A DNA stretch of 64,000 bases, taken from assembly GCA_046327955.1 (NCBI GenBank), contig JAXLXP010000007.1, positions 56,029 through 120,028 on the forward strand, read 5' to 3'. Positions 41,993 through 59,590 of the stretch are shown piece after piece (positions within the stretch are counted from its first letter, which is position 1; each line of letters opens with the position of its first letter). The notes below the pieces were generated by a model. That model searched no databases and was not told the origin of the DNA. It saw only the letters and a program-made list of their open reading frames with translations. The translations under genes and the position numbers were made by a program. Source of the DNA: Candidatus Binatia bacterium (lineage in GTDB: Bacteria > Desulfobacterota > Binatia > DP-6).

Positions 41993-42820
41993 TCAGCCCG
42001 GCTTGACGAACTTCAGCACGAAGCGGTCGCTCGTCCCCCGCCGGTCGCCCGCCGCCGATGGTGCATCGTTCCAGTCGCGCGGATCCGCCGGATTGCGCAG
42101 GAAGCCCGCCTGGGCGACGAGCCGGAAGCCCGCGGCTTCGATCTCCTCTCGCACGACCCGTTCTTCGATGCGGTGGAGCGTCTTCACTTCGTTCGTCCCC
42201 GAGCCCGGGCGGCCGCTGTGATCGATGATCCCGTAGATGCCGCCGGGCCGGAGTGCCCGAAAGACGGCGCCGTTCATCCGCGTTCGATCGACGCCCATCC
42301 ACACGGTGTCGTGATAGAAGAGCACGATGAGCACCATGTCGAGACTGCGCGCCTCCGGGGGCAGCGGATCGTCGAACTCCCTGTCGATGCGCACGACGTA
42401 CTGCATGACGGACTTGGCAAGCCGCGCGCTCCACGGGCGCTCCGCGAAGCGCTCCAGGATGAACCGCGAATTCTGTCCGTAGACGACCCCGATAGGACCG
42501 ACGACGCGAGCCAGGAGCTCCGTCGTGTAGCCGCCTCCTGCGCCCAGGTCCGCCACCCGCATGCCGGGCGCCACACCGAAGAAGGCGAGCATCTCCCCCG
42601 GGCGCCGGCCGCGGTCAAGCGCGCGGTCCTCATCCGTCCGATCCAGAGCGTCGACAGCCGCACCGATGGAGGGCGGAACCGGGACGGCGGCGACCGCAGA
42701 CCGGGCGTTCACCGCACCCGTCGTCGGGCCCGACGTCCTGTTGCAGGCGGGAACCAACAGGGCGGCGCCGGCCAAGAGCAATCCCGGGAGAGCCATCGAG
42801 TCGTGCACGCCGCGCCTCAC
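41993..42820 (-). CDS. Exported class I SAM-dependent methyltransferase (lipoprotein signal)
   Basis: LLVPAC lipobox and the SAM motif VADLGAGGGYTTELLA. GTGA overlap with the upstream gene. An alternative ATG is at 42796. Confidence 0.8.
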   Translation of the reverse strand: MRRGVHDSMALPGLLLAGAALLVPACNRTSGPTTGAVNARSAVAAVPVPPSIGAAVDALDRTDEDRALDRGRRPGEMLAFFGVAPGMRVADLGAGGGYTTELLARVVGPIGVVYGQNSRFILERFAERPWSARLAKSVMQYVVRIDREFDDPLPPEARSLDMVLIVLFYHDTVWMGVDRTRMNGAVFRALRPGGIYGIIDHSGRPGSGTNEVKTLHRIEERVVREEIEAAGFRLVAQAGFLRNPADPRDWNDAPSAAGDRRGTSDRFVLKFVKPG

Positions 42821-43182
42821 GTGCGACCGCCCAGGACGTAGCGGATGACGTCGACGTAGTCGATGACGAGCGACAGCGAATTCGTGGCGAGTAGCACCGT
42901 GACCCAGGTACTGAAGGCGCTACCCGGCTCGAGGCGCGGGCGCTGGCGTACCAGATAGATGACGAGCGGCGTCCAGAAGACCACGTGGGCCAGCCCGAGG
43001 AGCCGATTGAAGCCGTTCAACGTGAGCAGGACCGACATGAAGATCGCCGCGCCGCCGAAGGCGGCGAGCGCCCAGCGGGCCTGGACTTGGCGGAGAAACA
43101 GAATGGCGGCGAGGTTGACCAACCCCAGCCACGCGATCCACGCCTGCAGCCAGAGCGGGTACCTCAGGATGTGTTCGAGCAT
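42817..43182 (-). CDS. Small integral membrane protein (4 predicted TM)
   Basis: 121-aa hydrophobic ORF, translationally coupled to the methyltransferase. Confidence 0.6.
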   Translation of the reverse strand: MLEHILRYPLWLQAWIAWLGLVNLAAILFLRQVQARWALAAFGGAAIFMSVLLTLNGFNRLLGLAHVVFWTPLVIYLVRQRPRLEPGSAFSTWVTVLLATNSLSLVIDYVDVIRYVLGGRT

Positions 43183-43483: not shown

Positions 43484-44395
43484 TCACGCGAACTTCCCCA
43501 GGCTCGGCAGCCACGCGACGAACTCCCGCGCAATCGCGTCGGGCACTTCCTCTTGAATGAAGTGGCCGGCTCGACCCACGTCGCGAATCCGCACGCCGGG
43601 CACGTTCGCCTCCAGCCAGCGGATCCGTGCAGGCGTCGTGATCGCCCCCGGCGTGGCCCGTAGCCAGAGGAGTGGAATGCCGAGCGTCGGCAGCCGGCGC
43701 TCGATCTCCGCCAGCACCGCATACGTGGGTTCCGACGGGTCGAGCGGCAGCATGGCCGGCCAGCGTCTGATCGCCTTTCGGGATGCCACCGTCGGGTAGA
43801 ACGCGCGGTACTGCTCGAGCGCTTCGCGGGAGATCGCGCCCGGGGTCGCTGCGGTCGCGGGGAGCACGCGCTCGACAAACAGGTTCAGCATCTGCAACAG
43901 GACGAAGCCCAGTGTCGGAACGCGGAAGGCCCGGAACGCGAGCTGGAACGGCAGCGGGAAGTCCTCCCAGCGCAGCGGCCAGGGGAAGGTCTCCATTGCG
44001 GCGATCCCACGCACGTTGCCGGGCGCTTCGAGCGCATAGTGGAAACCAAGCGGCCCGCCCCAGTCGTGCAGCACCAGCACGAGGTCGCGGAGCGCGAGCG
44101 CCTCGATCACCCCCCGGACGACGGCCGCATGCTCGGCGAACGTGTAGACCACGTCCGGCTTGTCGGAGAGCCCGTGGCCCATGAGATCGATGGCGATCGC
44201 GCGGCCGTGGCGGGCGGCGGCCGGCAGGACGTTCCGCCACAGGAACGACGACGTCGGATTGCCATGCAGGAAGAGGATCGGCCGGCCCTCTCCCGCCTCC
44301 ACGTACTGGATGCGGACACGGGTCAGGTGGTAGCCCGCCAACGCCGACGGCGGCTCGAGATCGAGGAAGCGGCTGAAGAGCAACGCGTCCATCAT
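43484..44395 (-). CDS. Haloalkane dehalogenase-type alpha/beta hydrolase
   Basis: PILFLHGNPTSSFLWRNV and LVLHDWGG are the signature motifs of haloalkane dehalogenases. Confidence 0.85.
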   Translation of the reverse strand: MMDALLFSRFLDLEPPSALAGYHLTRVRIQYVEAGEGRPILFLHGNPTSSFLWRNVLPAAARHGRAIAIDLMGHGLSDKPDVVYTFAEHAAVVRGVIEALALRDLVLVLHDWGGPLGFHYALEAPGNVRGIAAMETFPWPLRWEDFPLPFQLAFRAFRVPTLGFVLLQMLNLFVERVLPATAATPGAISREALEQYRAFYPTVASRKAIRRWPAMLPLDPSEPTYAVLAEIERRLPTLGIPLLWLRATPGAITTPARIRWLEANVPGVRIRDVGRAGHFIQEEVPDAIAREFVAWLPSLGKFA

Positions 44396-44397
44396 CC

Positions 44398-45522
44398 CTA
44401 CCGCGTCCCGACCACGGCGAAGACGGCGACCCCAAGAGCCGCCGCAGCGGGCACGGTCACGACCCAGGCAAGGACCATTCCATGCACGGTCCTCCAGTTG
44501 ATCGCCCCTCGTTCGGCGCCGGCGGCGATGATCGCCCCCGATGACACGTGGGTGGTCGACATCGGCAGTCCGCCGACCGCCCCGGCGGTGACGACCGCCG
44601 CCGTCACGAGGTTAGCCACGAATCCACCGCGATGGTCGAGCCGCGTGACCTTCTCGGCCAGGACGTTGGTCACCCGGCGGCCGCCGACGAGGCTCCCCGC
44701 AACCATGCCGAGCGTGGCCAGCACGAACATCAACGACGGGGCCACGGGCGATCCGCCGGAGAGCGCCGAGGCCGCCAACATGAGCGCGACTATCTTGGGG
44801 GCATCATTCATGCCGCGGGCGAAGCTGGTCGCGCCGCTCGTGAGCCAGTGCACATGGTCGACGGTCAGGCGGAGCGCCGTCGGCCGTTCGGTGGCGCAGG
44901 CGACCTGTGTTCCGATGGTGATTCGGGCCTGCAAGCCCTGCGCAACCAGGGCGGCCGTGTTGGACGCGCCCACCGGCACCAGCGATGGCTCGATCTCGGT
45001 GCAGAGGCAGTCCGCCGGCTCAGCCGCCGGAGACGTCGCAACGGAGGCCACGCGAAGCAGCAGCAGCGTCACGACGAGCGACACGACGGGGCTGAGCAGC
45101 AGCGGCAGGACGACCTTCCCGCCGATAGCGACCCAGTTGATCCCGTGGAAGCCGTAGGCGACCGCGCCGACGCCGGCAATCGCACCGACGATCGCGTGGG
45201 TCGTCGAGACCGGCAGGCCGGAGCGCGTCGCGATCAGCACCCAGGCGGTGGCACCGAGGATGGTCGCGAGCGCGGCTGCAAAGGTCGGCGGGGTTCCGGG
45301 CGCCAGCAGCCCGTTGCCGAAGGTGGACACCATGGCCCACGCCAGACTCCCACCCGTCAGCCCACCGAGGGCCGTGCAGAGTGCGCCCCAGCGGATGGCG
45401 CGGCGATAGTCGCTCACGCCGCTTCCGACCAGGGTTGCGATGCCCTTCGAGACGTCGTTGGCCCCGTTCGCGAGGGCAACGAGGAAGCCTGCAACGACGA
45501 CGATGGAGCCTGCGGAACTCAT
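44398..45522 (-). CDS. PiT-family inorganic phosphate (arsenate-permeable class) transporter
   Basis: ATG at 45522: MSSAGSIVVVAGFLVALANGANDVSKGIATLVG...ARGMNDAPKIVA, the two PHO4 repeats. Confidence 0.9.
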   Translation of the reverse strand: MSSAGSIVVVAGFLVALANGANDVSKGIATLVGSGVSDYRRAIRWGALCTALGGLTGGSLAWAMVSTFGNGLLAPGTPPTFAAALATILGATAWVLIATRSGLPVSTTHAIVGAIAGVGAVAYGFHGINWVAIGGKVVLPLLLSPVVSLVVTLLLLRVASVATSPAAEPADCLCTEIEPSLVPVGASNTAALVAQGLQARITIGTQVACATERPTALRLTVDHVHWLTSGATSFARGMNDAPKIVALMLAASALSGGSPVAPSLMFVLATLGMVAGSLVGGRRVTNVLAEKVTRLDHRGGFVANLVTAAVVTAGAVGGLPMSTTHVSSGAIIAAGAERGAINWRTVHGMVLAWVVTVPAAAALGVAVFAVVGTR

Positions 45523-46504
45523 GGTCCCCCCAGTGCGCCGCCACAGCTCGACCCGGCGCCGGCCGTACACCGAAGCAGTGGCTGGCCGTCGCGACCGGTT
45601 GGCCGGCGAGCCCGTCAATTGAATCGACTCCCCAGATCGTTCGAGCTCCCGTCTGGCGGGTCGCCCCGAGCGGGATGTCGAGCATCTGGTTGAAGTCACA
45701 GTCGTAGAGGCGCCCGTCCCAGCCGACGCTCACCAGCGACCGGCACATGAGCGCCGGCACAGTGGCAGGATTGAAGTGGTTCACGAGCAAGCCCATGTAC
45801 GCGTCGAGCCAACCCTCGCGAGCGAGCGCGTCGGCGAATCGCTTGATCGGCATGTTCGTGATGGTGAGGAGCCGGCGGAACTCGATCCCGAAGCCTCGCC
45901 GTAGTTCCTCTCGATACCGCGCCTCGAGTTCCTGCTGGCACGGCGGAAGGAAGGCGCCCACCGGGTTGTAGACGAGGTCAAGCACGAGGTCGGAGCCCGG
46001 GCGGCCGTATCCGAGCGCGTTCAACCGCTGGAGTGCCTCGATGCTCTTGTCGAACACCCCCCCGCCTCGCTGCTTGTCCACGTTGCCCGCGCTGTAGCAG
46101 GGCAGGCTCGCGACCACCTCGACGGCGTTCTCGGCGAGGAACTCGGCGAGGTCCGCCATGCCCGGTTCGAGGAGCACGGTGAGATTGCAGCGATCGATCA
46201 CGTGCCGGCCAAGCCGCCGCGCCTCCGCCACGAGCCAGTGGAAGTTCGTGTTCAGCTCCGGCGCGCCGCCGGTCACGTCGACGACCTCCACGTCCGGACT
46301 GCCCTCAAGCAGCTCGATGACGCGCGCGGCGACCGGTCGACCCATCATCTCGGTCCGCTTCGGCCCCGCGTCGACGTGGCAGTGATGGCACGCCTGGTTG
46401 CAGCGCTTGCCCACGTTCACCTGCAGGGTGGTGACCCGCTCGCGCGCGAGCGGCGCGAGCCCGTGCTGCGCGAGGGCGCGGTCGAAGTCCGCCGCGGCCG
46501 TCAA
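45519..46504 (-). CDS. arsS: Arsenosugar-biosynthesis radical SAM protein ArsS (radical SAM/Cys-rich domain family), with an apparent 1-nt deletion 17 codons before the stop
   Basis: TTG at 46504 (TTGA overlap with the arsM stop): (M)TAAADFDRALAQHGLAPLARERVTTLQVNVGKRCNQACHHCHVDAGP... The main frame ends ...ATASHCFG. The expected tail CTAGAGSSCGGALGGP-stop lies in the -1 frame and terminates in an ATGA overlap with the PiT start. The span is 986 nt, not a multiple of 3. Confidence 0.8.
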
Positions 46505-47691
46505 CAGCAGCTTCCGCCCTTGGCGGCATTCCCGCCGCACCCGTTGCCGACCGCGTCGGTCGTCACGCGATACTCCTGGCCCTTCGTCTCCCGCGGATGG
46601 CGCTCGAGCGCTTCCCCCGTGCACGGAAACGCGGGCGCATCCTCGAGGGGGATCAGCACGCGCGGCGGGATGAGTTCCAGGTGCGCGCGGTAGGGCTCCT
46701 GCGAGTAGATGCGGAACGTCTTCTCACAGACGGCCGTTCGCATACCCCTACGCAGCACGTGCCCGTCGTCGTCCTCCACCTGCCGGAAGGGGCCACGATA
46801 GACGACCGCGTGCTTCTGGTCCCAGCACGGCCCCTCCTTGCCCTTGTAGGCCGCGACTGTCACGCTCCGAAACTCGATGCCCTGGACTGTCCGCCAGGGC
46901 TCGGTCTGGCGCTCAAGGAGCGTCACGCCGTAGAAGCTTGCGGCTTCGAACGCGGCGAGGAAGATATCCTCACGCAGCGCCCCCGCGATGCAGCCGCTCC
47001 AGAGTTCCGGGTCTCGCTGGATGGGCTCCGGGACATCCTCATCGCTCACGATGTCGGAGATGACGGCCCGCCCGCCGCGCCGCAGCACGCGGAAGATCTC
47101 AGCAAAGAGCTCTCGCTTGTCCTCTGGGCGCACGAGGTTCAGGACGCAGTTGGAGATGACGACGTCGACCGACTGGTCCGCCACCAGCGGTCGAAGACGC
47201 CGCTGCTCCGCAATCCGCGCCTCCAGGCGTGCGAGGTCCGTCTCCGAGCGAACGGGTTCCGCGCGCAGGAGATCGTCGAGCCACTCGCGGTCGAGGCGCA
47301 GGTCCTGGATCTTCCCCTTCTGGAAGCTCGTGTTCGCATAGCCGACCCGTCGGGCCACCTCGGGGGCGTTCCGGCGCGCCACCGCGAGCATGTCGTCGTT
47401 CATGTCGACGCCGATGACCCGCCCGGTCGGGCCGACCACCTGGCTCGCGAGGAAGCACACCTTGCCGCTGCCCGAGCCCAGATCCAGCACGGTCTCGCCT
47501 GGCCCCACGTGTCGCGTTGGATCGCCGCAGCCGTAGTCCCGCGCCAGCACCTCTTCGGGGAGTGCGGCGAGCAACCGCGAATCGTACGAGGTCGGACAGC
47601 AGAGCGCCGGCTCCGCCGTCCGCGCGCCTGCGGAGTAGCGCTCTCGAACGGCAGCCTCGACGTCGATCCCTTGTTGAGCCTGCTCGGACAT
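46501..47691 (-). CDS. arsM: Arsenite S-adenosylmethionine methyltransferase
   Basis: GGGAGGAAG RBS then ATG at 47691: MSEQAQQGIDVEAAVRERYSAGARTAEPALCCPTSYD...DYGCGDPT...VLDLGSGSG..., with a Cys-rich C-terminus. Confidence 0.9.
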   Translation of the reverse strand: MSEQAQQGIDVEAAVRERYSAGARTAEPALCCPTSYDSRLLAALPEEVLARDYGCGDPTRHVGPGETVLDLGSGSGKVCFLASQVVGPTGRVIGVDMNDDMLAVARRNAPEVARRVGYANTSFQKGKIQDLRLDREWLDDLLRAEPVRSETDLARLEARIAEQRRLRPLVADQSVDVVISNCVLNLVRPEDKRELFAEIFRVLRRGGRAVISDIVSDEDVPEPIQRDPELWSGCIAGALREDIFLAAFEAASFYGVTLLERQTEPWRTVQGIEFRSVTVAAYKGKEGPCWDQKHAVVYRGPFRQVEDDDGHVLRRGMRTAVCEKTFRIYSQEPYRAHLELIPPRVLIPLEDAPAFPCTGEALERHPRETKGQEYRVTTDAVGNGCGGNAAKGGSCC

Positions 47692-47704: not shown

Positions 47705-48511
47705 TCAGGAAACTGCGAGGATGCCATCCTCGATCCAGCGGAGCAGGAGCTGCGCCGCTTCGCGCACCGCCTCCTCCGAGCCCACCACCGACTCCAGGGC
47801 CGCACACACGCTGGCGAACGGCTCGCCGCAAATCACACGCCCGAGGGCCAGATGCTCCTCCACACCCATGCTTGCCTGGTACACCATGAATCCATCACGC
47901 CAGACCCGAAGCGACGTCCTCGTCGGGCGTACGCCCTCGGGAGGCCCGCCCTCCTCGGCGGCCGCCCACAGCTCGTGGACCGGCCAGGCGCTGTGGAGGA
48001 GCTGGACCGCCGGCACCAACCGGAAGATGAGGCGCGGCCACTCCGGCAGCGCGACCGCACCCAGGTCGTCGACGCGCAGCCGTTGCGCGTCGGGCGCATC
48101 GAAGACCGCCAAGCGGGCCCACTCGAGCCGCGCGAGATCGGCTAGAAACGGCAGCCCCTCGATCTCGGGTCCCAGAGCAAGGAACGCCGCAAACCGCTCG
48201 CCGACGTGCCGAACGGACGGGTGCAGCGACGGGTTCCGCGCCAGGTAGGTGCGCACTACAGCGTCAAACCGCTCCGCACCGAGGATCGCCGCCACGCGCG
48301 GGAAGTCCTCGCTCAGCACGTCGTGCAGCCGTGCCCAGTACATCTGCGCGTAGATGTCGAGGCGGTCTACGGGCCCCAGCGGCCCTCGCCCCTCCACCAC
48401 CCGCACGAGGGCCGGGTCAAACTCCTCCGACGCTGACGGCCCGGGGCTCGCCGCGATCGAGCGGAAGAAGGACGTCTGCAGGTCATGCAGAGCGAGCACG
48501 GGCACCTCCAA
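47705..48511 (-). CDS. bufC: DUF2063 protein (BufC/HvfC-type partner of the MNIO enzyme)
   Basis: 268 aa: ...LQTSFFRSI...DRLDIYAQMYWARLHDVLSEDFPRV... Overlaps the DUF692 gene by 29 nt. Confidence 0.85.
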   Translation of the reverse strand: MEVPVLALHDLQTSFFRSIAASPGPSASEEFDPALVRVVEGRGPLGPVDRLDIYAQMYWARLHDVLSEDFPRVAAILGAERFDAVVRTYLARNPSLHPSVRHVGERFAAFLALGPEIEGLPFLADLARLEWARLAVFDAPDAQRLRVDDLGAVALPEWPRLIFRLVPAVQLLHSAWPVHELWAAAEEGGPPEGVRPTRTSLRVWRDGFMVYQASMGVEEHLALGRVICGEPFASVCAALESVVGSEEAVREAAQLLLRWIEDGILAVS

Positions 48512-49331
48512 TGACCTCCGTTTCTACGGCGCGGGCGCACTCCGCTTCCGCGCACAGGACCTCCCATTCGGGGATCTGATCGTCCCACTCGACGAGCGTG
48601 GAGACGGGGCCGAAGCGGCGCAGCGCCAGGCGATAGAGGTCCCACACCGCGGGGACAACGTGTCCGTCGTGCGTGTCGAGGAGATGCGTCCCCTTGTCGC
48701 TGTGGCCCGCCAGGTGGATCTGGCCGACCCGATCGGCGGGCATGGCCATCACGTAGGCGGCCGCGTCGAACCCGTGGTTCACGCTGCTCACGTAGACGTT
48801 GTTCACATCCAACAGGATGCCGCAGTCGGCGCGCTCGGCGATCTCGGCCAGAAACTGCCACTCGGGCATGACCGAGTGCTTGAAGGTGAGGTAGCTCGAG
48901 ACGTTCTCGACGAGGATCTGCCGATTGAGCCGATCCTGCGCCCGCCGCACTCGCTCCACGACGTGCGTCAGCGCCTCCTCGGTATACGGCAGCGGCAGCA
49001 GGTCGTGCGCGTAGTGGCCGCCGATGCTGCCCCAGCAGAGGTGATCCGACACCCACGCAGGCTCGAAGCGATCCGCCAGCACGCGGAGCGCGGTGAGATA
49101 GGTTTCGTTCAGGGGATCGGTCGAGCCGAGCGACAGCGACACGCCGTGAAGGACGAGCTGGGCCAGCGCCCGGGCCCGCTCGAGCACCGCCAGCGGCCGG
49201 CCGCCCCGGATCATGAAGTTCTCCGAGATCGCTTCGAACCAGTCGATCTGCGCCGTGCCCTCGAGCACGCGGGGAAAGTGCTTCGTGCGCAGCCCGACGC
49301 CGTGACCGAGATATGGAACGATGCACGCCAT
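48483..49331 (-). CDS. bufB: DUF692 / MNIO (multinuclear non-heme iron oxidative) enzyme, MbnB/BufB-type
   Basis: MACIVPYLGHGVGLRTKHFPRVLEGTAQIDWFEAISENFM...VSDHLCW...ILVENVSSY...LLDVNNVYVS...IHLAGH. The start is either the ATG at 49331 or the track start at 49352. Confidence 0.9.
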   Translation of the reverse strand: MACIVPYLGHGVGLRTKHFPRVLEGTAQIDWFEAISENFMIRGGRPLAVLERARALAQLVLHGVSLSLGSTDPLNETYLTALRVLADRFEPAWVSDHLCWGSIGGHYAHDLLPLPYTEEALTHVVERVRRAQDRLNRQILVENVSSYLTFKHSVMPEWQFLAEIAERADCGILLDVNNVYVSSVNHGFDAAAYVMAMPADRVGQIHLAGHSDKGTHLLDTHDGHVVPAVWDLYRLALRRFGPVSTLVEWDDQIPEWEVLCAEAECARAVETEVIGGARARSA

Positions 49332-49407
49332 CTGCGTTTCCCTCTTCGACACCCGGAGGCGGTCGGGTCCCTGGCTGTCAGCCAGGGACCCTCCCCGCGA
49401 TCGCTCA

Positions 49408-49677
49408 CTACAGCTTCTTGGGTTCGATGACTTTGCCGCCCTGCTTTGCGCACTCCTCGGCGCTGCTCACGTCCACGAATCCCTTCCCCTTGCAGGCGTT
49501 CTTACCCTTGCAGGCATTCTCCGCCCCGGCGCAGCTGCCCTTCCCCTTGCACGCGTTGATGCCGGCGCAGTGCACCTCACTCCCCGCCTTGTCCGTGGCC
49601 CGTGCCACGACTCCGCCCGACAGCAGCAGCGCGGCGGCCGCGCTCGCGATCAGAATGCCTCTTCCGACTGTGTTCAT
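49408..49677 (-). CDS. bufA: Bufferin-type RiPP precursor (DUF2282-related, 6-Cys class) with Sec signal peptide
   Basis: MNTVGRGILIASAAAALLLSGGVVARA / TDKAGSEVHCAGINACKGKGSCAGAENACKGKNACKGKGFVDVSSAEECAKQGGKVIEPKKL. Six Cys, reiterated AC-KGK units, directly upstream of the MNIO gene. Confidence 0.8.
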   Translation of the reverse strand: MNTVGRGILIASAAAALLLSGGVVARATDKAGSEVHCAGINACKGKGSCAGAENACKGKNACKGKGFVDVSSAEECAKQGGKVIEPKKL

Positions 49678-49760
49678 CCGTCTCTCCTCATGGTTGATTG
49701 TGGGTGGGCTCGGCTGGCCCGTCGATCCAGCGCCCCAATGGCGCCGGATTGGCTCACCGT

Positions 49761-50453
49761 CTACGGCTGCTTCTCACCTTCATGCGCATCCGGGACGGCC
49801 GCGAAGAGGTTGACGTCGACCGTCCCCTCGGTGCCGACTACGTCCGCCAGCTGCTGCACCCGGGCAAGCCAGCCGGCGGTGTTCTTGGGGCTCACACCAT
49901 ACTTCTCCCGGTCGAACTGCTCGATGCGAGCGCGGATGCGGAGCGTCCGCGTCGAGCCGTAGGTGCCGGGTGGCAAGTAGATCACCGTCCCCTGGATGCG
50001 CTCCCGGCGGTGATCGTCGCGCGGCCGGCCGCAGATCGTGAACGTGCCCTCGGTGGTGAAGGCCACCGGCTTCTTGGGCTCGACCGGGGGTGGCAGCTTG
50101 ACGGCCGGCACCTCGAGGGTGAACGTGCACTGGGCCGGCTCCATCTTCTTGTTGGTGGCCCACTGGCCGAAGTGCTCAGTCTTCGTGTCGTCGTTGTCGA
50201 CGCGGATGGAGGTCAGGGGGACCGAGCAGGTTGCATGGCCTTCCAGCTTTCCCTCGTCGACCGTCAACGTACAGCCGACCGCGGAGCTTAGGGCCATGAT
50301 GCGCTCCCCGATGGTCGAGTCGAAGACCGCGGTAAAGGCGTTGTTACCGACCTCGGGATCCACGGTGAACTTCGTGTCGGCAACCGCGGGCGCGGCCAAG
50401 AGCGCCACCACCATCACGGCGGCCAACGGCAGGTGGATGACACGCGACCTCAT
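49761..50453 (-). CDS. Periplasmic YceI-like protein
   Basis: ATG at 50453: MRSRVIHLPLAAVMVVALLAAPAVADTKFTVDPEVGNNAFTAVFDS...SIRVDNDDTKTEHF. Signal peptide plus a YceI-like pattern; moderate resemblance. Confidence 0.55.
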   Translation of the reverse strand: MRSRVIHLPLAAVMVVALLAAPAVADTKFTVDPEVGNNAFTAVFDSTIGERIMALSSAVGCTLTVDEGKLEGHATCSVPLTSIRVDNDDTKTEHFGQWATNKKMEPAQCTFTLEVPAVKLPPPVEPKKPVAFTTEGTFTICGRPRDDHRRERIQGTVIYLPPGTYGSTRTLRIRARIEQFDREKYGVSPKNTAGWLARVQQLADVVGTEGTVDVNLFAAVPDAHEGEKQP

Positions 50454-50521
50454 AGGCAACCCCCCAAATGTCAGGATGCCCGTTGGATGCGGCTCGGCCT
50501 GTCGTGTCGCATGCCCCAGCG

Positions 50522-50800
50522 TCAGCGGCCGGCCGCAAACCGCTCCCGCAGGGCACGCCGGACTCGGAGGCATACTTCCTCGGGGATCTCGTCAGCAGGC
50601 AGCTCGCCGGTCAGCTTGATGACCGTCGCGTAGGTGCGGGCGAACGCCTCGCAGTCAGGGCAGTTCTGCAGATGCCGCGTGATGATCGCGGTCAGCTTCG
50701 GCTCGAGCAGGCCCTCGAAGTAGTCGTGCAGGACGGCCACGACCTCCTCGCAGCTCCGCTTGCCCAGCACGCGCATCATGCGTCCCATGACCTGCTTCAT
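50522..50800 (-). CDS. Cytoplasmic ZAS-family anti-sigma factor (RsrA-like, C-x26-HxxxCxxC)
   Basis: 92 aa: MKQVMGRMMRVLGKRSCEEVVAVLHDYFEGLLEPKLTAIITRHLQNCPDCEAF. ATGA overlap with the sigma gene. No TM segment. Confidence 0.75.
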   Translation of the reverse strand: MKQVMGRMMRVLGKRSCEEVVAVLHDYFEGLLEPKLTAIITRHLQNCPDCEAFARTYATVIKLTGELPADEIPEEVCLRVRRALRERFAAGR

Positions 50801-51516
50801 CGTTCGTCTCCAACGTGCTGCGCGAGCTGTGCTCTGAGCCAGAGTCGCGCTCGGTGGAGCCGGCTGCGGGTGGCTGACACCGTGAGCCCAGTCGCCGCCG
50901 CGATGTCCTCGTGACTCTGGCCCTCCCCGTCCTTCAACCAGACGATCGCCCGATCGAGCTCCGGGAGCGCGTCGAGCGCGGTCTTGAGAGCGGCGCGCAG
51001 CTCCGCCCGGCGCACGGGGGCCTCCGCCGACTCCGCCCAGTCGGGCACGGCCTGCGCATGCATGCCCATCCAATTGAACTTCGGGAGGTCCTCCTCGGAG
51101 ATCACCCGCGTGTGCGCCGGAGCCCTCCGGCGCATGAACGCGCAATTGACCGCGATCCGGTAGAGCCAGGACCCGAACGCCGCGTCACCGCGGAAGCCAT
51201 CGAGCTTCTCGAAGGCGGCCAGCAACGCCTCCTGGTACACATCGGCGGCCTCGGTGGGATCGCGGGTGATGCGAAGGATGCCCCGGTAGACCGGGCGCTC
51301 GTAAGGCTGAATCAGTTCCTCGAACGCCGGCAGGTCGCCCTGCCGCACGCGCGCGACGAGCGCAGCCTCCTCCGGGGCCCGCGTCCCGACCGTACTGGTA
51401 CCAGCGTCATCCACCCGTGCGGTCCTCCTGACGTTGGATGCAGCTGCGGTGTCGGCGTTGTACGGCGCACCCCCCCGCAACGGCCGAACCGCCCCGCGCA
51501 TCAAGATCTCGGACAC
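50797..51516 (-). CDS. ECF-type RNA polymerase sigma factor (start uncertain, probably downstream of 51516)
   Basis: ...ALVARVRQGDLPAFEELIQPYERPVYRGILRITRDPTEAADVYQEALLAAF...LPELDRAIVWLKDGEGQSHEDIAAATGLTVSATRSRLHRAR. Confidence 0.9.
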   Translation of the reverse strand: MSEILMRGAVRPLRGGAPYNADTAAASNVRRTARVDDAGTSTVGTRAPEEAALVARVRQGDLPAFEELIQPYERPVYRGILRITRDPTEAADVYQEALLAAFEKLDGFRGDAAFGSWLYRIAVNCAFMRRRAPAHTRVISEEDLPKFNWMGMHAQAVPDWAESAEAPVRRAELRAALKTALDALPELDRAIVWLKDGEGQSHEDIAAATGLTVSATRSRLHRARLWLRAQLAQHVGDER

Positions 51517-51570
51517 CTATGGACCGTCAACCCGGCGGGAACATTGACGATCGGTCCTTCCGCGCCCGCG
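51432..51570. repeat. Copy A of a ~138-bp direct repeat (sigma-gene upstream region plus a dead 5' end of the thioredoxin-like gene)
   Basis: cgttggatgcagctgcggtgtcggcgttgtacggcgcaccc...atggaccgtcaacccggcgggaacattgacgatcggtccttcc aligns, with scattered mismatches and small indels, to 53153-53289. Confidence 0.8.
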
Positions 51571-51609
51571 ACCATTCTCGTATGGTGCCGCTATGCCGCT
51601 GAGGGCTGC

Positions 51610-52266
51610 GTGAGCGACCGTCGGGGCGCCCTCTGCGTCTTTGCCAAGCCCCCTATGCCTGGACGGGTCAAGACGCGGCTCGTGCCGGCCCTGGGGGTCG
51701 AGGGGGCGGCCCATCTCGCACATGCTGTTCTCTGCGATACCTGGTCCAGCGCCCGGGCCCTTCCCTGGGCCAGTCCTATCCTCGCCACGACCCACGTCTT
51801 CCCGCCCGCCCTCCGGCCCGCACCGGATGCCGTCGTGTGGATGCAGGGCAGCGGAGACCTGGGACGCCGCATCGAGCGGATCCTCGCCCGCGCGCTCGGG
51901 CGCTTCCCGTTCGCGATCGCACTCGGCGCGGACACGCCCGGCCTGCCCGTCCGGTTCCTCGAGGAAGCACGGGTGGCACTCGGCTCGGCCGACGCGGTTG
52001 TCGGTCCCACGGAGGACGGTGGCTTCTATCTCCTGGGCCTCAGGCGGTGTCCGCGGGGCCTCCTCGCCGGCCTGCCGTGGAGCGATCGCGACACTTGCGC
52101 GCGCACGCTCGAGCGGCTACGGGCCCGCGGACTCATCACCGTCGTCCTGGATTCGTGGTTTGACATCGACCGCCCGGAAGATCTGGACCGCTTGCGGGCA
52201 CTCCTTGGGCGCGGCGAACTCGCGGCGCCGGCGACATGCCGGGCGCTGGGGCGGACGCAGGCCTGA
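51610..52266 (+). CDS. TIGR04282-type (DUF2064) arsenosugar-associated glycosyltransferase
   Basis: GTG at 51610: VSDRRGALCVFAKPPMPGRVKTRLVPALG...GDLGRRIERI...IALGADTPGLP...VVGPTEDGGFYLLGL... Confidence 0.8.
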   Translation: MSDRRGALCVFAKPPMPGRVKTRLVPALGVEGAAHLAHAVLCDTWSSARALPWASPILATTHVFPPALRPAPDAVVWMQGSGDLGRRIERILARALGRFPFAIALGADTPGLPVRFLEEARVALGSADAVVGPTEDGGFYLLGLRRCPRGLLAGLPWSDRDTCARTLERLRARGLITVVLDSWFDIDRPEDLDRLRALLGRGELAAPATCRALGRTQA

Positions 52267-53003
52267 AGCTGTCCTGGCGGAGACGCAGGCGCCAGACGCC
52301 GCCCGCCGCGCGGCCGGGCGGCATCTCGATCATCGTTCCCGTCATCGACGAGGAGCGCCGCATCGGGCAGCGCCTGAAGGAGCTGCGCGGAACCCCGGAC
52401 GTGGCCGAGGTGATCGTCGTCGATGGCGGGAGCAGAGACCGCACGCTGGAGATCGTGCGAGGATGTCCAGGGGTGCGCCTGCTTGCAGCGCTGCGGGGTC
52501 GTGGCGTGCAGATGAACGCGGGCGCCAGGGCTGCGTCGGGCGACGTGCTCCTTTTCCTGCACGCAGACGTCTCCCTTCCCCCCGATGCCACCGCATGCGT
52601 CGCCCGGGCACTCGCCGCTCCGGAGGTGGTCGCAGGAGCGTTTCGCACCTGGACCGTCGACGATGCCGGCCGCTCCTGCCTCACACCGCTCTTGCATCTC
52701 GCGGATCTGCGCTCGCGCGTCGCGCGCTTGCCGTACGGGGATCAGGCGGTCTTCGTTCGTCGCGAAGCGTTCGTGCGTGTCGGTGGCTTCCCCGACCAAC
52801 CGCTCATGGAGGACCTCGAGCTGGCGCGCCGCCTGAGGAGAATCGGGCGGATTGTCGTGGTACCTGCCGTCGTCCGCGTCTCCGGACGCCGCTTCCTCGC
52901 CCATCCACTGTCTGCCATTCTGACCATGCGACTGTTCCCGCTCCTGTATCGCCTGGGTGTCTCGGCGCGGGTACTCGACCGGCTCTACGGGCGCCCGCGC
53001 TGA
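52236..53003 (+). CDS. TIGR04283-type family-2 glycosyltransferase (arsenosugar-associated)
   Basis: ISIIVPVIDEERRIGQRLKEL...VIVVDGGSRDRT...LLFLHADVSLP...LPYGDQAVFVRREAF...MEDLELARRLRR. Confidence 0.85.
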   Translation: MPGAGADAGLKLSWRRRRRQTPPAARPGGISIIVPVIDEERRIGQRLKELRGTPDVAEVIVVDGGSRDRTLEIVRGCPGVRLLAALRGRGVQMNAGARAASGDVLLFLHADVSLPPDATACVARALAAPEVVAGAFRTWTVDDAGRSCLTPLLHLADLRSRVARLPYGDQAVFVRREAFVRVGGFPDQPLMEDLELARRLRRIGRIVVVPAVVRVSGRRFLAHPLSAILTMRLFPLLYRLGVSARVLDRLYGRPR

Positions 53004-53020: not shown

Positions 53021-53155
53021 TCAGCGCCGCAGCGCGCGCCATCGCTCGAAGAGCCGCCGGACGCGCGGGGTGAGCCGGCTCCGGCTGTAGGCGTCCCCGG
53101 CATTCTTCATCACCTCCGCCTGGGTGGGGTACGGATGGATCGCGGCCGCGATCGT
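53021..53155 (-). pseudogene. 3' remnant (~45 codons) of a pyridine nucleotide-disulfide oxidoreductase (dimerisation-domain tail)
   Basis: The minus-strand tail reads ...TIAAAIHPYPTQAEVMKNAGDAYSRSRLTPRVRRLFERWRALRR-stop. The upstream part is replaced by repeat copy B. Confidence 0.5.
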
Positions 53156-53289
53156 TGGATGCAGCTCCGGTGTCGGTGTCGTACGGCACACCCGTGCAAC
53201 AGCCGAACCGTCCCCCGCATCAAGACATCGGGCACCCATGGACCGCCAACCCGCCGAGATCGTTGACGATCGATCCTTCCCCACCCGCG
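53153..53289. repeat. Copy B of the ~138-bp direct repeat (functional promoter/5' end of the thioredoxin-like gene)
   Basis: See 51432-51570. Confidence 0.8.
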
Positions 53290-53879
53290 TGCTCGAACCC
53301 CGGCACCCGACGCTGGTGCTCTTCACTGCCCGGGATTGTCTCCCGTGCGACTTCCTGGCGCACCGGCTTCCGGCCATGGCCTCGGACCTCGAGGGTTCGA
53401 TCGACATCGTCTGCTGCGCGACCGAGGCCAGCCCGCGGACGGTCCAGCGGTACAACATCGCCCGGACCCCGACTCTCCTCCTGTTCATGGACGGCGGACT
53501 GATTGCCTCGCGAGTCGGACCTGCCCCTCTCCCGGTGATCCGGCGCTGGGTCGTAGAGGCCCTGAAGGGCCACGTGGAGGTCGAAACGGAACAGGACGCG
53601 CCGATCTCTGGGGGAGGAGGACCCATGAACGCGGTGCGGGTCTTCTTCCGGCATGTCGTGAGTCGCCCGATCGTCCTGCGATCCTGCGGAGTCGCGAGTG
53701 TGGTCGCCCCTGTGCTGCTTCTCCTGAATCACGCGGATTCTCTGCTGAGCAGTCCCTTGAGTTACCCCGCCCTGCGGAAGCTCGCTCTCAACTTCGTTGT
53801 CCCTTATCTCGTTTCCTCGTACTCCTCGGCACGGGCCGCGACCCGATGGGCTGCCACCGATCCCGGAGCGACACCATGA
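53238..53879 (+). CDS. Thioredoxin-like protein (DCLPC) continuous with a NrtS-like membrane module
   Basis: MDRQPAEIVDDRSFPTRVLEPRHPTLVLFTARDCLPCDFL...RTPTLLLFMDG. After a Gly-rich linker comes MNAVRVFFRHVVSRPIVLRSCGVASVVAPVLLLLNHADSLL...LNFVVPYLVSSYS (NrtS pattern). An internal GGAGGAGG plus the ATG at 53625 could also give a separate product. Confidence 0.7.
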   Translation: MDRQPAEIVDDRSFPTRVLEPRHPTLVLFTARDCLPCDFLAHRLPAMASDLEGSIDIVCCATEASPRTVQRYNIARTPTLLLFMDGGLIASRVGPAPLPVIRRWVVEALKGHVEVETEQDAPISGGGGPMNAVRVFFRHVVSRPIVLRSCGVASVVAPVLLLLNHADSLLSSPLSYPALRKLALNFVVPYLVSSYSSARAATRWAATDPGATP

Positions 53880-53926: not shown

Positions 53927-53985
53927 CCTAGTACTACTGTGTCATAAACCTTGCGGGGCCGGCCGTGGTATGGCACGAGTCAGCC

Positions 53986-55149
53986 ATGGGGGGACAGGCG
54001 GCGGGGGCGGGGCGGTTTGCGGAGTACGTGGAGCGGTTGGGGGCGGCGGTCGGACACGCCGACCGTGGCGAGCCGTTGCGCGCCTATCTGACGGGCCTCT
54101 TACTCCCGGGCGAGCGCAAGAGCGTTGAACCGATGGCGGCGAAGATCGACCCCCGGCGGGTGCGGGCGCGGCACCAGTCGATGCATCACTTTGTCGCCGT
54201 GGCGCCCTGGGATGAGCGCGCCGTGTTGCGCACGGCCCGCGACTACTTGCTTCCGGAGCTCGAGCGCCATGCCCCGGTGGGGGCGTGGGTCGTCGATGAC
54301 ACCGGCATCCCGAAGAAGGGCTTGCATTCCGTCGGGGTGGCGCGCCAGTACTGTGGCCCGCGCGGCAAGCAGGACAATTGTCAGGTCGCGGTCACCGTCT
54401 CGCTGGTCAATGCGGTGCTCAGCGTGCCCGGTGCCTATCGGCTCTATCTGCCCGAGGCGTGGGCGCGGGACCGGCGGCGCCGGGCGGCCGCCCACGTCCC
54501 GGTGGCGGTGCGGTTTCAAACGAAGTGGGCCATCGCCCTGGAGGCGATCGACGAGCTGCTGGCCGAAGGGCTGCCCCGCGCCCCCGTCGTCGCCGACGCC
54601 GGCTACGGGGTGATCACCGCGTTTCGCGAGGGGCTCAGCACGCGCGGCTTCTCGTACGCCGTCGGCATCACGAGCGAAACGACGGTGTGGCCGCCCGGCC
54701 AGGGCCCGTTGCCGCCCGCGCCGTGGAGCGGGCAGGGGCGTCCGCCGACGCGGCTGCGACGGACGGCGCGCGTGCACCCACTGGCGGTGGAGGTGCTGGC
54801 GCGACGGCTGGCCCCGACGATGTGGCGCCCCGTGCGGTGGCGGGCCGGGACGCGGGGCACGATGCAGTCGCGCTTTGCGACGGTGCGCGTGCGCGCGGCC
54901 CATCGCGACGATCAGCGGGCGGAGGCGCGGGCCCCCGAGTGGTTGCTGATCGAGTGGCCGCGGGGCAACGAGGCGCCCGCCAAGTATTGGCTCTCCACGG
55001 TCCCGGCCGACGTCCCGCTCGACGAACTCGTGCGGCTCGTCAAGATTCGCTGGCGCATCGAGCGCGATTTCCAGGAACTCAAGGACGAGCTGGGGGGCGA
55101 CCACTATGAGGGCCGCGGCTGGCGGGGCTTTCATCACCACGGGGCCTTA
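53986..55149 (+). pseudogene. IS701-family transposase, 5' part
   Basis: MGGQAAGAGRFAEYVERLGAAVGHADRGEPLRAYLTGLLLPGERKSVEPMAA...VVDDTGIPKKG...RWRIERDFQELKDELGGDHYEGRGWRGFHHHGAL, then the interruption. Confidence 0.85.
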
Positions 55150-55152
55150 GAG

Positions 55153-56611
55153 CCACCCGTTTCAAGGTGTCTTCTTGGTCCGTGCCGCCGCCATGAGCCG
55201 CGCCGTGGAGTGATGGCGCTGGGCGACCCTCCGCGCGACGTAGCCTTTGGGCGCGGGTACCTTGGGCGCGCGCCGACTCTTCCGCACCGTGGCGATGTTC
55301 AGTCCCGCCGCGGTCTTCCGCAGCAGGGCCGCGAAGCGCGCGTCGCCGAGGGCGTCCCAGGGGGCCCAGTCGGTGGTGTCGGTCGCGATCGCGAAGCCCT
55401 GGTACCTCGCACGGATCTCGACCGCCACGTGATACGACGACACGGCCGGGACGTCCCCGTCGACCGTGTGGGTCGCTTCGACCGCGCGGCGCACTACCTG
55501 GAGCACATTGAACGCCAAGACCGCGAGCCCAAACGCGAACAGCGCCGCCTTCGGCTGGCCGAGCGTGCGCAGCCCGCCGGCCAGCGCGGCTTCGAGTTCG
55601 CCGAACATCCCCTCGATCGTCCACCGCCCACGGTAGTGCTCGGCGATCTCACGGGCCCGCAGCCGCGTGGCGGGCACGTTCGTCAGCAGCACGAGCGTGG
55701 TGGCACCATCCTGGGTCGGCGCGTCCGAGTGCACCCGGACCTGCCGGAGTGGCAGCGTCCGGCCATCGCTGCGCGTCATGGTGACCGGCTGTTCGTCCAC
55801 GGTCCCCGTGGCCGTGCGGCCACCGCGGCGGGGCATCCCCGACGCCACCACGATCGGCGAGCGCCCGTGCTTGCGCACGATGAAGACGGCGCCCTGGTCC
55901 GCAAACCCCTCGAACAAGCGCGTCGTGCTGAAATTCCGATCCGCCACCCACAACTGCCCGCGGGCAGCCAGGGCGACCAGCGCCTCCGTGAGCGAGCGCT
56001 CTTGGGCATGCGCGTCCTCACACGGGACGAGGTCCACCGCCAGCCCGAGCTGCGGATCGTAGACCACCAACGTGTGGCCGGGCAGCGCGGCGCCCCGCAG
56101 GCCGCGCAACGCCTTGAGCCGCTTCTCCGTCGCCGGCAAGTGATTGCCGTCGACGATGCGCACCGCGTACCCGCCGCCCCCCACTGCGGGCCCCGACCGT
56201 CAGCGCGGCGAGCACGCCGGCGAGTCGCTGCGCGCCGTCGCGGACCATTGCCCGCACCAGGGCGGGCTCCGTCCGGTTAATCTTGTCGTACAGCGCCGTC
56301 AGCGACACCGGGAGGGTGGCGCCCGCCGCTCGGACCGCCGCGTGAATCGACGGCCGGAACCCGAACGTGACCGAGGCGAGCAAATCCACGACCGTCGAGA
56401 ACAGCAGCGACCGGACGTACTGCCGCTCGGCGTGCTGGGCGAACAGCGCATCGAGCCACGGCGCCGCCAGCGCCCGCCGCAGCGTCAGGTGCGCCATTAC
56501 GGTCAGCGGACTCCGTTTGAGGAACCGCTCCACCACCGCATCCCACCCCATCCGCCACCTCCCACCCTCGAGGCAGCGCTACCTCACGGGGGGTCACCTT
56601 GAAAGGGGTGG
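55153..56611 (-). mobile_element. IS4-family-like insertion sequence
   Basis: 17-bp IRs CCACCCGTTTCAAGGTG (55153-55169) and CACCTTGAAAGGGGTGG (56595-56611), with 1 mismatch. Flanked by the 9-bp direct repeat GCCTTAGAG (55144-55152 and 56612-56620). Confidence 0.8.
55162..56551 (-). pseudogene. IS4-family DDE transposase with a frameshift at a C/G run near 56175-56185
   Basis: The N-terminal frame (MGWDAVVERFLKRSPLTVMAHLTLRRAL...) and the C-terminal frame (...GGYAVRIVDGNHLPATEKRLKAL...WVADRNF...HYRGRWTIEGMFGELE...) overlap. The span is 1390 nt, not a multiple of 3. Confidence 0.8.
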
Positions 56612-56620
56612 GCCTTAGAG

Positions 56621-56768
56621 CCACCCCTTTCAAGGTGACGAACGCCCGTAATCATTGAGGTATTTCGAGAAAGTCGGCGAAGGGCCGTCTGTAGAAACCG
56701 GCCTCTGGAGCGGTGATCGAGCGGAAAGGTGCTGATTTCATCGACTTCCGCCACCTTGAAAGGGGTGG
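56621..56768. mobile_element. 148-bp MITE-like derivative of the IS4-like element
   Basis: Same IRs (CCACCCCTTTCAAGGTG ... CACCTTGAAAGGGGTGG) and no ORF. Followed by a third GCCTTAGAG copy (56769-56777). Confidence 0.7.
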
Positions 56769-56778
56769 GCCTTAGAGC

Positions 56779-59434: not shown

Positions 59435-59441
59435 TACTAGG

Positions 59442-59590
59442 ACGGCGCTGGTGCTCTCGGGGGGCGGCATCACGGGGTTTCTCTACCAGATCGGTGTGCG
59501 CGCTGCGCTCGCGCACGCCGTACCACCCGGGCCGTTCAACGAACACTTCGATCTCTTCGTCGGGACCAGCGCGGGAGTGGTCACGGTCGC
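59442..59590 (+). pseudogene. Patatin-like phospholipase gene, continuation, truncated after ~45 codons
   Basis: ALVLSGGGITGFLYQIGVRAALAHAVPPGPFNEHFDLFVGTSAGVV. It then runs into the opposite-strand hydrolase remnant. Confidence 0.55.

Follow-up and report, generated by a model that had tools for sequence, protein, structure and literature searches.

The window, as we call the whole 64,000-nucleotide stretch of contig JAXLXP010000007.1 (Candidatus Binatia bacterium) analysed here, has a G+C content of ~69% and carries on its minus strand the genes of an extracytoplasmic function (ECF) sigma factor, a small zinc-associated anti-sigma (ZAS) protein and a secreted protein designated X, followed by bufA2, bufB and bufC, which encode the precursor of a bufferin, a multinuclear non-heme iron-dependent oxidase (MNIO) and its DUF2063 partner. 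A sequence-only reading of the same DNA had described these six genes as a locus for a ribosomally made peptide with post-translational modifications (RiPP) of the bufferin type, and all six are present on the minus strand exactly where it had placed them. The bufA2 product scores 84.2 bits against the BufA2 model NF050166 (cut-off 60), with profile positions 2-78 of 79 aligned. Its translation reads MNTVGRGILIASAAAALLLSGGVVARA/TD..., comprising a signal peptide (...VVARA/TD...) that holds the hydropathy maximum of the protein at its N-terminal segment and a core with six Cys, whose reiterated coding units are visible in the DNA as direct repeat D2. BufB, encoded 76 nt downstream, reaches 377.3 bits against NF050167 (cut-off 310) and 359 bits (1e-107) against Pfam PF05114. 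The overlapping bufC encodes an N-terminal DUF2063 domain (PF09836, 70.2 bits, cut-off 27.2); its score of 67.8 bits against the HvfC model NF050145 lies under the cut-off of 142, as expected for a different subfamily. As both the precursor and the MNIO exceed the curated NCBI cut-offs, the core corresponds to the known Buf2 bufferin cluster, an assignment that by these profile matches is almost certainly correct, and the bufferin claim of the sequence-only reading, in which the BufA2, MNIO, DUF2063 and zf-HC2 profiles all score above cut-off, is thereby borne out. A second bufferin was looked for in the 64-kb window and none was found. Bufferins are reported to be the largest group of MNIO-modified peptides; in Caulobacter, Buf2 carries a -4 Da modification on each of its four central Cys and a disulfide between Cys I and VI, resides in the periplasm and is induced by copper via SigF (PMC11626156).

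Our searches retrieved 1125 homologues of BufA2 and 965 of X. Related loci, designated by L-numbers, come from a genome scan with the X alignment that gave 63 loci, all in metagenome-assembled genomes, and from exact-protein look-ups and one metagenome scan with the ZAS alignment, which yielded three loci only, because its peptide patterns were narrow. The taxa of the X scan are Binatia, Myxococcota (including Anaeromyxobacter), Methylomirabilota, one Gemmatimonadaceae bin and one Limnocylindria bin. Coordinates of all features in the window are collected in the table.

Table. Features of the bufferin locus and its surroundings, in positions of the window
Feature	Position	Strand	Remarks
ECF sigma, RpoE/AlgU/SigW-like, 205 aa	50797-51414 (ORF to 51516)	minus	Pfam and TIGR02937 matches
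Soluble ZAS (zf-HC2) anti-sigma, 92 aa	50522-50800	minus	CHCC motif C17, H43, C47, C50
X, secreted 230-aa protein	49761-50453	minus	signal peptide, four conserved Cys, predicted divergent YceI-fold beta-barrel
bufA2 precursor	49408-49677	minus	89 aa, Sec signal peptide, six-Cys core
RNA hairpin, 12 bp, GC-rich, no T-tail	49365-49391	minus	between bufA2 and bufB
bufB MNIO maturase	48483-49331	minus	NF050167, Pfam PF05114 (MbnB_TglH_ChrH)
bufC DUF2063/HvfC-type partner	47705-48511	minus	Pfam PF09836; 29-nt overlap with bufB
ArsM-like S-adenosylmethionine (SAM) methyltransferase	46501-47691	minus	begins 13 nt past bufC stop
arsS radical-SAM (start approximate)	45519-46540	minus	TIGR04167; apparent 1-nt deletion near 45569
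PiT/PHO4-family transporter (pit)	44398-45522	minus	Pfam PHO4 216 bits
Haloalkane-dehalogenase-like alpha/beta hydrolase	43484-44395	minus	2 nt after pit; NF002938 279 against 241
TIGR04282 arsenosugar-biosynthesis glycosyltransferase	51601-52266	plus	145.6 against cut-off 134; divergent from sigma
TIGR04283 arsenosugar-biosynthesis glycosyltransferase	52236-53003	plus	213 against cut-off 182
Candidate ECF promoter P_sigma, TACAAC-N16-CATCCAA	51434-51462	minus	~18-20 nt before sigma GTG
Candidate ECF promoter P_X, TGCGAC-N16-CATCCAA	50483-50511	minus	in 68-nt ZAS-X spacer
Third promoter-motif copy	53155-53183	minus	inside repeat copy 2, thioredoxin 5' region
Repeat copy 1 (~140-nt direct repeat)	51432-51570		sigma upstream region and truncated thioredoxin 5' end
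Repeat copy 2	53153-53289		83-90% identical; 5' region of intact thioredoxin gene
Thioredoxin-domain protein	53238-53879	plus	Pfam Thioredoxin 44 bits; ~100-aa C-terminal extension

The sigma factor matches Pfam Sigma70_r2 and r4_2 and the generic ECF model TIGR02937 (88 bits, cut-off 43), and its best solved relatives are AlgU (6in7), RpoE (1or7) and SigW. Translation likely starts at the GTG at 51414, ahead of which lies AGGAGG, and the stop codon overlaps the ATG of the anti-sigma gene as ATGA, by which the two are translationally coupled. The anti-sigma protein matches zf-HC2 (PF13490, 35 bits, cut-off 22.2) and, with a peak 19-residue hydropathy of 0.69, has no membrane segment, in agreement with its earlier description as a soluble 92-aa protein with C17, H43, C47 and C50. 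These four residues are invariant across 17 ZAS homologues, C76 being variable, and the family appears small, as 24 proteins of the window's type were found among 5.8 billion by a search whose sensitivity is bounded by its word index. The zinc ligands of RsrA, C11, H37, C41 and C44, have the same spacing (C-x26-H-x3-C-x2-C), which is the part of the earlier label "RsrA-like" that stands. Yet the protein scores 24.7 bits against the RsrA equivalog TIGR03988 (cut-off 62.5), no RsrA chain appears among its solved-structure matches at E<=1, and the search brought up a single solved relative, RsiW, with its N-terminal domain (5wuq, E 0.01); the likeness to RsrA is thus one of motif and not of membership. 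RsiW is a membrane protein with the same CHCC motif that is inactivated by regulated proteolysis, indicating that the motif alone does not predict redox sensing. Since the anti-sigma protein has neither a membrane nor a periplasmic part, the signal that releases the sigma factor must act in the cytoplasm, and to this extent the inference of the sequence-only reading is solid. The anatomy of the protein suggests a thiophilic or oxidative trigger sensed there by its zinc-thiolate site, and the thiol-oxidation or soft-metal trigger that the sequence-only reading predicted is kept as a tentative possibility. The window has another ECF sigma gene at 30067-31391, which has no relation to the bufferin locus; behind it comes an open reading frame (ORF) of 254 aa for a possible anti-sigma factor.

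Aligning the window with L008, whose sigma factor is 76% identical, revealed a bipartite element, T[GA]C[AG]AC-N16/17-CATCCAA, before the sigma gene and in the spacer between the anti-sigma gene and X. The strict motif occurs three times in the window, always on the minus strand, against 0.005 occurrences expected, and CATCCAACG alone three times against 0.45. Throughout the 69 loci then gathered it was found solely before the sigma gene and X of L008. Among loci added later it precedes the sigma gene and X in L070, bufA2 in L077, where X is absent, and the sigma gene in L078; with one mismatch it stands before the sigma genes of L077 and L079, and in L079 and L080 it stands, without mismatch, ahead of a DUF3179 gene. 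Promoters of the RpoE type (GGAACTT-N16-TCAAA) are similar to the motif, which fits the RpoE/AlgU-like relatives of the sigma factor. As the motif is shared and specific to this lineage, it gives good comparative support to autoregulation of the sigma gene and to direct transcription of the bufferin block by the adjacent sigma factor, which on these alignments we regard as highly probable. A scan for sigma-70-type promoters found none, and GCATCCAACG, considered as a -35 element, was rejected when the L008 alignment showed it to be the downstream half of the bipartite motif. With the candidate promoter there is also something definite on which to build reporter assays in a surrogate host.

The gene string is compact, with successive gaps of 68 (ZAS-X), 83 (X-bufA2), 76, -29 and 13 nt, an overlap, and then -4 and 2 nt. 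A terminator scan found no site in any intergenic gap (3 matches against 3.4 expected by chance), its sole minus-strand match, at 48475-48491, lying within the overlap of bufB and bufC, and an Rfam scan of 43-54 kb detected no known RNA family. Between bufA2 and bufB, a 78-nt stretch that includes the hairpin has a folding energy of -39.4 kcal/mol (z = -3.3). Of 37 aligned loci, 29 have a stem at the same position, never shorter than 7 bp and mostly of 9-18 bp, in some with a T-rich tail, and the sequences of these stems are unrelated. That the position is kept while the sequence is not points to a function, most likely partial termination or stabilisation of the transcript that leaves the precursor in excess over the enzymes, an arrangement known from other RiPP operons. 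In L008 an additional small Cys/His-rich ORF (11020-11360, ~70 aa, MTFTVACVRCHQ...) lies between bufA2 and bufB, where the window has only the hairpin.

Protein X gave no useful Pfam or NCBIfam match, even at E=10, and a profile search against sequences of the Protein Data Bank (PDB) returned noise only. Its homologues form a highly conserved family with a signal peptide and four conserved Cys, and all are unnamed save two that the Joint Genome Institute (JGI) labelled "polyisoprenoid-binding protein YceI". An AlphaFold (AF2) model of X built from 24 sequences (pLDDT 77.7, pTM 0.71) was compared with solved structures by Foldseek; the top 11 matches all have the YceI fold (E 2e-7 to 2e-5, probability 1.0), among them BcnB (5ixg, E 2.4e-7) and E. 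coli YceI (1y0g) and TT1927b (both ~1e-6), with TM scores of 0.7-0.78 normalised to the target and identities of 10-15%. An exhaustive profile search yielded no more than 113 clusters (at 50% identity), with many fragments among them, but it included one nearly full-length match (P0372, E 4.8e-5) that itself scores 114 bits against Pfam YceI and is the single bridge in sequence. A direct hhalign comparison of the X alignment with one canonical YceI was not significant. Based on the predicted fold and this bridge, X is best described as a divergent branch of the YceI family; the earlier term "YceI-like" therefore holds for the modelled fold and the one sequence link and fails for the Pfam model PF04264, which X does not match. 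Four long proteins (P0331, P0342, P0353 and P0376, 528-2864 aa) match the X profile at residues ~90-150 in 7-15 repeated stretches; either these proteins have a repeat domain akin to a portion of X, or the matches are an artefact of composition.

X lies directly upstream of bufA2-bufB-bufC in about two thirds of the 72 X-bearing loci, in several phyla; the remaining X genes stand alone or on contigs that end just after X. L011, L018, L038, L050 and others have an X homologue with neither bufA2 nor an MNIO gene within 10 kb, indicating that the family is not strictly tied to bufferins. In L071, orthologues of the sigma and anti-sigma proteins (59% and 58% identical) are encoded divergently from a canonical YceI (Pfam 169 bits) that is followed by bufA2-bufB-bufC, suggesting that the YceI-type gene ahead of bufA2 arose or persisted in two forms distinct in sequence. 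That X is obligatory in loci with the window's regulators was rejected, since L077 lacks it. The sequence-only reading was right to place a YceI-like gene between the regulators and the precursor; what it missed is that X is a conserved core partner across the clade and not a one-off insertion. A published survey of bufferin clusters accepted unrelated genes only at a distance of at most 10 bp from a known gene (PMC12452194), a rule by which X would have been left out. Among the papers of the library searched, none joins YceI with bufferins or MNIOs, and a conserved YceI-fold partner family of bufferins appears to be unreported. As a large, conserved and unannotated family with a clear genomic partner, X has a function that can be tested.

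Relatives of the bufferin block are found with regulators of three types. The first, an RpoE-like sigma factor with a ZAS protein of 87-92 aa, occurs in the window, L008, L070, L077 and L071. The second, in 12 loci (e.g. L002 and L067), combines a 216-aa sigma factor, 31% identical to that of the window, with a ZAS protein of 80 aa or longer. The third, in 14 loci (e.g. L066, L069, L073 and L074), consists of a SigF-like sigma factor and NrsF, often in the exact position that the sigma/ZAS pair holds in the window; the window's sigma factor is only 28% identical to the SigF-like factors of L066 and L069. X keeps its place ahead of bufA2 under any of these regulators. One genome, GCA_975095495.1, has two X-bufA2-bufB(-bufC) blocks, one (L002) with a convergent sigma factor and an 80-aa ZAS protein, of the second type, the other (L066) with an upstream SigF-like sigma factor and NrsF. 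That the first type always accompanies a bufferin cluster as a pair was rejected, as L078, L079 and L080 carry it without an adjacent one. The survey reported sigma and anti-sigma genes in Buf1 clusters and none in Buf2 (PMC12452194), and close relatives of the window have SigF and NrsF in the same place, so that the control module does deserve the description "unusual" that it had been given. The absence of the membrane anti-sigma factor of the Caulobacter SigF system, also claimed before, extends to the entire window, in which no homologue of NrsF (PF06532) was found. Control of Buf2 by a soluble ZAS protein encoded in cis and the interchange of three regulator types both appear to be without precedent in print. 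One kind of peptide machinery is found under the control of three or more exchangeable sigma/anti-sigma modules, of which one is confined to the cytoplasm; nature has in this way set up an experiment on the site of signal sensing.

The bufferin genes do not end the gene string. The sequence-only reading had closed the locus at 47705, which is wrong, as arsM begins just past bufC and the string reaches 43484; its six bufferin and regulator genes stand, whereas the fused and flanking arsenosugar-type genes escaped it. The best NCBIfam matches of the ArsM-like protein are arsenic methyltransferase models, all under cut-off (NF040538, 328 against 500; NF008823, 202 against 263). By inspection its translation shows conserved Cys in the motifs LCC, YGCGDP, SNCV and WSGC, and its L008 orthologue, 79% identical, is encoded in the same place. 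ArsS scores 406.8 bits against TIGR04167 (cut-off 300), and at 45560-45580 of the minus strand its reading frame shifts after ...SHCFG. L031 and L006 have TTCGGCTGCACG here and the window TTCGGTGTACG, one base short, which takes the conserved Cys(Sec)-rich C-terminal motif CTAGAGSSCGGAL out of frame; the gene is either a real pseudogene or the victim of an assembly error. The stop codon of the restored arsS overlaps the ATG of pit as ATGA, and pit also follows arsS in L006. Homologues of the hydrolase lie beside X-bufA2BC in L005, L006, L067, L073 and L074 (seven loci match overall), and since the gene directly follows bufC in L073 and L074, arsM-arsS-pit looks inserted into an older bufC-hydrolase junction. 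Some 300 nt past the hydrolase gene, at 41993-43182 of the minus strand, are two co-directional genes, for a 121-aa protein with no matches and a 275-aa methyltransferase-like protein with weak similarity to ArsM models.

Arsenic-type genes accompany 6 of about 53 bufferin loci, the window and five others, in at least three arrangements. L008 repeats the gene order of the window; in L006, sigF-nrsF-arsM-arsS-pit is convergent with X-bufA2BC-hydrolase; L031 reads bufC-DUF547-arsS-VTT...TIGR04283; L075 has arsS fragments beside sigF-nrsF, with DUF547 and DsbH genes after bufC; and L023 has an ArsM fragment. The TIGR04283 orthologue lies near the bufferin block in both L031 and L008. In our judgement this recurrence is probably more than chance. 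A link between bufferins and arsenosugar-type genes has, it appears, not been reported.

The region upstream of the sigma gene bears signs of rearrangement. Repeat copy 1 retains a truncated thioredoxin start (MDRQPGGNIDDRSF...stop), copy 2 belongs to the intact thioredoxin gene, and the copies are separated by the two glycosyltransferase genes, which look as though they had entered an ancestral divergent thioredoxin/sigma intergenic region like that of L077, where the thioredoxin orthologue (71% identical) is divergent from the sigma gene. Thioredoxin homologues also occur near bufferin or arsenic genes in L006 (62% identical), L008 and L017, and the L077 thioredoxin has, with its residues 135-170, a further match in the window at 59439-59546. 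The third promoter-motif copy is followed directly downstream, at 53024-53155 of the minus strand, by a remnant comprising the last 44 codons of a fusion of a VTT domain with a pyridine-nucleotide-disulfide oxidoreductase, 91% identical to the C-terminus of an 802-aa protein of L077. Transposase genes (DDE_5, DDE_Tnp_1) occupy 53965-57254, directly past the thioredoxin gene, and this region, too, looks rearranged. At 37185-39464 a Thioredox_DsbH (DUF255) protein is encoded; L069 and L075 have a homologue next to their bufferin clusters, and the contig of L005 and L078 carries one as well.

Based on these data we propose an ECF-sigma-controlled Buf2 bufferin operon that would work as follows. 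At rest, the 92-aa zinc-finger protein would hold the sigma factor. The likeliest signal would be oxidants, electrophiles or thiophilic metals and metalloids such as Cu(I) and As(III), attacking the CHCC zinc site. The freed sigma factor would then fire P_sigma, for its own synthesis, and P_X, from which X and bufA2 would be transcribed, the hairpin past bufA2 keeping the precursor in excess over the enzymes, with read-through that would reach bufBC and, in the lineage of the window, arsM-arsS-pit-hydrolase as well. If Caulobacter Buf2 is taken as the model, BufB and BufC would act on BufA2 in the cytoplasm and turn its four central Cys into 5-thiooxazoles, the product would be directed to the periplasm by its Sec signal peptide, and there the first and last Cys would form a disulfide and the peptide sequester a soft metal. 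X may serve as a periplasmic YceI-fold barrel that carries or binds the peptide or a hydrophobic ligand, which is the least certain step. As a whole we consider this explanation reasonably probable. A further reading is that this clade of uncultured soil and groundwater bacteria employs Buf2 and its dedicated YceI-fold partner within an ECF-controlled arsenic defence, in which one cytoplasmic zinc-thiolate switch (NrsF in sister loci) would command both periplasmic sequestration by the bufferin and X and the cytoplasmic conversion of As(III) by ArsM and ArsS; we hold this reading, and with it any specific role of the locus in arsenic metabolism, to be improbable at present.

Several observations weigh against the proposed operon in one or another of its parts. 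The locus and all its relatives are known from sequence alone, the relatives being metagenome-assembled. The first type of sigma/ZAS pair is not always next to a bufferin cluster (L078, L079, L080), about one third of X genes stand alone (some on contigs that end just past X), and L077, whose ZAS protein is 88% identical to that of the window, reads sigma-ZAS-bufA2 with no X. Between the end of the -10-like element of P_sigma and the proposed GTG there are only ~18 nt, which implies a very short leader or a start codon elsewhere, and transcription could stop at the hairpin, short of bufB. ZAS proteins that are not redox sensors, such as RsiW, the best solved match, have the CHCC motif too, and the RsrA model is not reached. 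Only 6 of ~53 bufferin loci have arsenic-type neighbours, and in the window arsS carries a frameshift. The last two points suit the view that this is an ordinary copper-stress bufferin cluster, that its arsenosugar neighbours are an accident of a rearranged island, separately transcribed and used, and that the sigma/ZAS pair senses general oxidative or envelope stress. Caulobacter buf2 is induced by copper, ~47 of 53 X-bufA2BC loci have no arsenic-type gene nearby, and the 140-nt duplication, the gene remnants and the insertion sequence (IS) elements from 53965 on testify to rearrangement, as does the insertion-like position of arsM-arsS-pit when compared with L073 and L074. ArsS-type gene sets are expected about once per genome by our estimate, and to find them with bufferin genes in at least three arrangements (window and L008, L006, L031 and L075) is hard to explain by chance. 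Moreover, in L006 sigF-nrsF heads the arsM-arsS-pit string, and in the window the 13-nt gap between bufC and arsM contains no terminator-like site. We rate an ordinary copper cluster with accidental neighbours as rather unlikely.

The place of sensing and the role of X allow other readings as well. It is conceivable that the ZAS protein is a constitutive brake and not a sensor, being removed by proteolysis or by a partner when a signal is perceived elsewhere, e.g. in the periplasm via X or the bufferin. RsiW, its best solved relative, is removed in this manner, the score against the RsrA equivalog lies under the cut-off, and sister loci run the same block with the membrane sensor NrsF, suggesting a periplasmic stimulus. 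However, neither a membrane segment nor an extracytoplasmic domain is present in the protein, no protease or partner gene is conserved beside it, and all four of its zinc ligands are invariant, the N-terminal Cys among them; a mere brake seems to us quite improbable. As for X, it may be unrelated to bufferin function, namely a general periplasmic stress protein of the YceI type that binds lipids or isoprenoids and happens to share a stress-inducible promoter. The X genes that have no bufA2 and the absence of X from L077 are in keeping with this, and solved relatives of the fold are described as polyisoprenoid-binding proteins or as a sequesterer of antibiotics. Yet the constant position of X directly ahead of bufA2, in ~2/3 of the 72 loci, in Binatia, Myxococcota and others and whichever the regulator, and the canonical YceI that L071 has in this place speak against it, and we find this account of X rather unlikely.

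To our knowledge, the only bufferin response studied so far is that of Caulobacter, to copper. That bufferin genes are repeatedly tied to arsenic-transforming genes, both physically and in their regulation, suggests that some bufferins handle metals or metalloids beyond copper, and if the arsenic reading were true, bufferins would for the first time be connected with arsenic and this branch of YceI would have its first known function. Published fusions of MerC with bufferins likewise hint at metals other than copper (PMC12452194).

Among known systems, the locus is closest to bufA2-bufB2-bufC2 of Caulobacter vibrioides, with which it shares the six-Cys Sec precursor, the MNIO with its DUF2063 partner, the absence of DoxX and control by an ECF sigma factor. 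Whereas the Caulobacter cluster is governed by SigF and the membrane-bound NrsF, whose genes lie at the buf1 locus, that of the window has its regulators in cis, as an RpoE-like sigma factor and a soluble 92-aa ZAS protein, and it possesses an extra gene of predicted YceI fold before the precursor and an extension of the operon into arsM-arsS-pit-hydrolase. Buf1 (DUF2282) clusters with sigF-nrsF and doxX resemble it in the adjacent sigma/anti-sigma pair and in having one accessory operon gene that is not an enzyme; their precursor is of another family, the accessory is the membrane protein DoxX and not a periplasmic YceI-fold protein, and the anti-sigma factor of the window is, unlike theirs, cytoplasmic. 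With SigR-RsrA of Streptomyces the window has in common a small soluble ZAS protein with C-x26-H-x3-C-x2-C, a nearby thioredoxin gene and an autoregulated sigma factor (here a candidate). It differs in an RpoE/AlgU-like sigma factor that matches SigR domains with ~30 bits only, in the promoter motif and in falling short of the RsrA model. Of the solved anti-sigma domains, that of RsiW of Bacillus subtilis comes nearest, and SigW likewise ranks with the nearest sigma factors, but RsiW is bound to the membrane and the anti-sigma protein of the window is not. The barrels of YceI, BcnA-BcnB and TT1927b share with X the eight strands with a helical insert predicted by the model, the periplasmic location and an N-terminal 'T-F-x-V-D-P' start, and X is set apart from them by the lack of a Pfam YceI match, ~40 extra residues, the four conserved Cys and its dedicated position in bufferin clusters. 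Finally, as in the ArsM/ArsS arsenosugar pathway (TIGR04167, TIGR04282, TIGR04283), arsS and both glycosyltransferases score above their cut-offs and arsM adjoins arsS; in the window, by contrast, ArsM lies under every equivalog cut-off, arsS is frameshifted, and the set is split around a RiPP cluster and co-directional with it.

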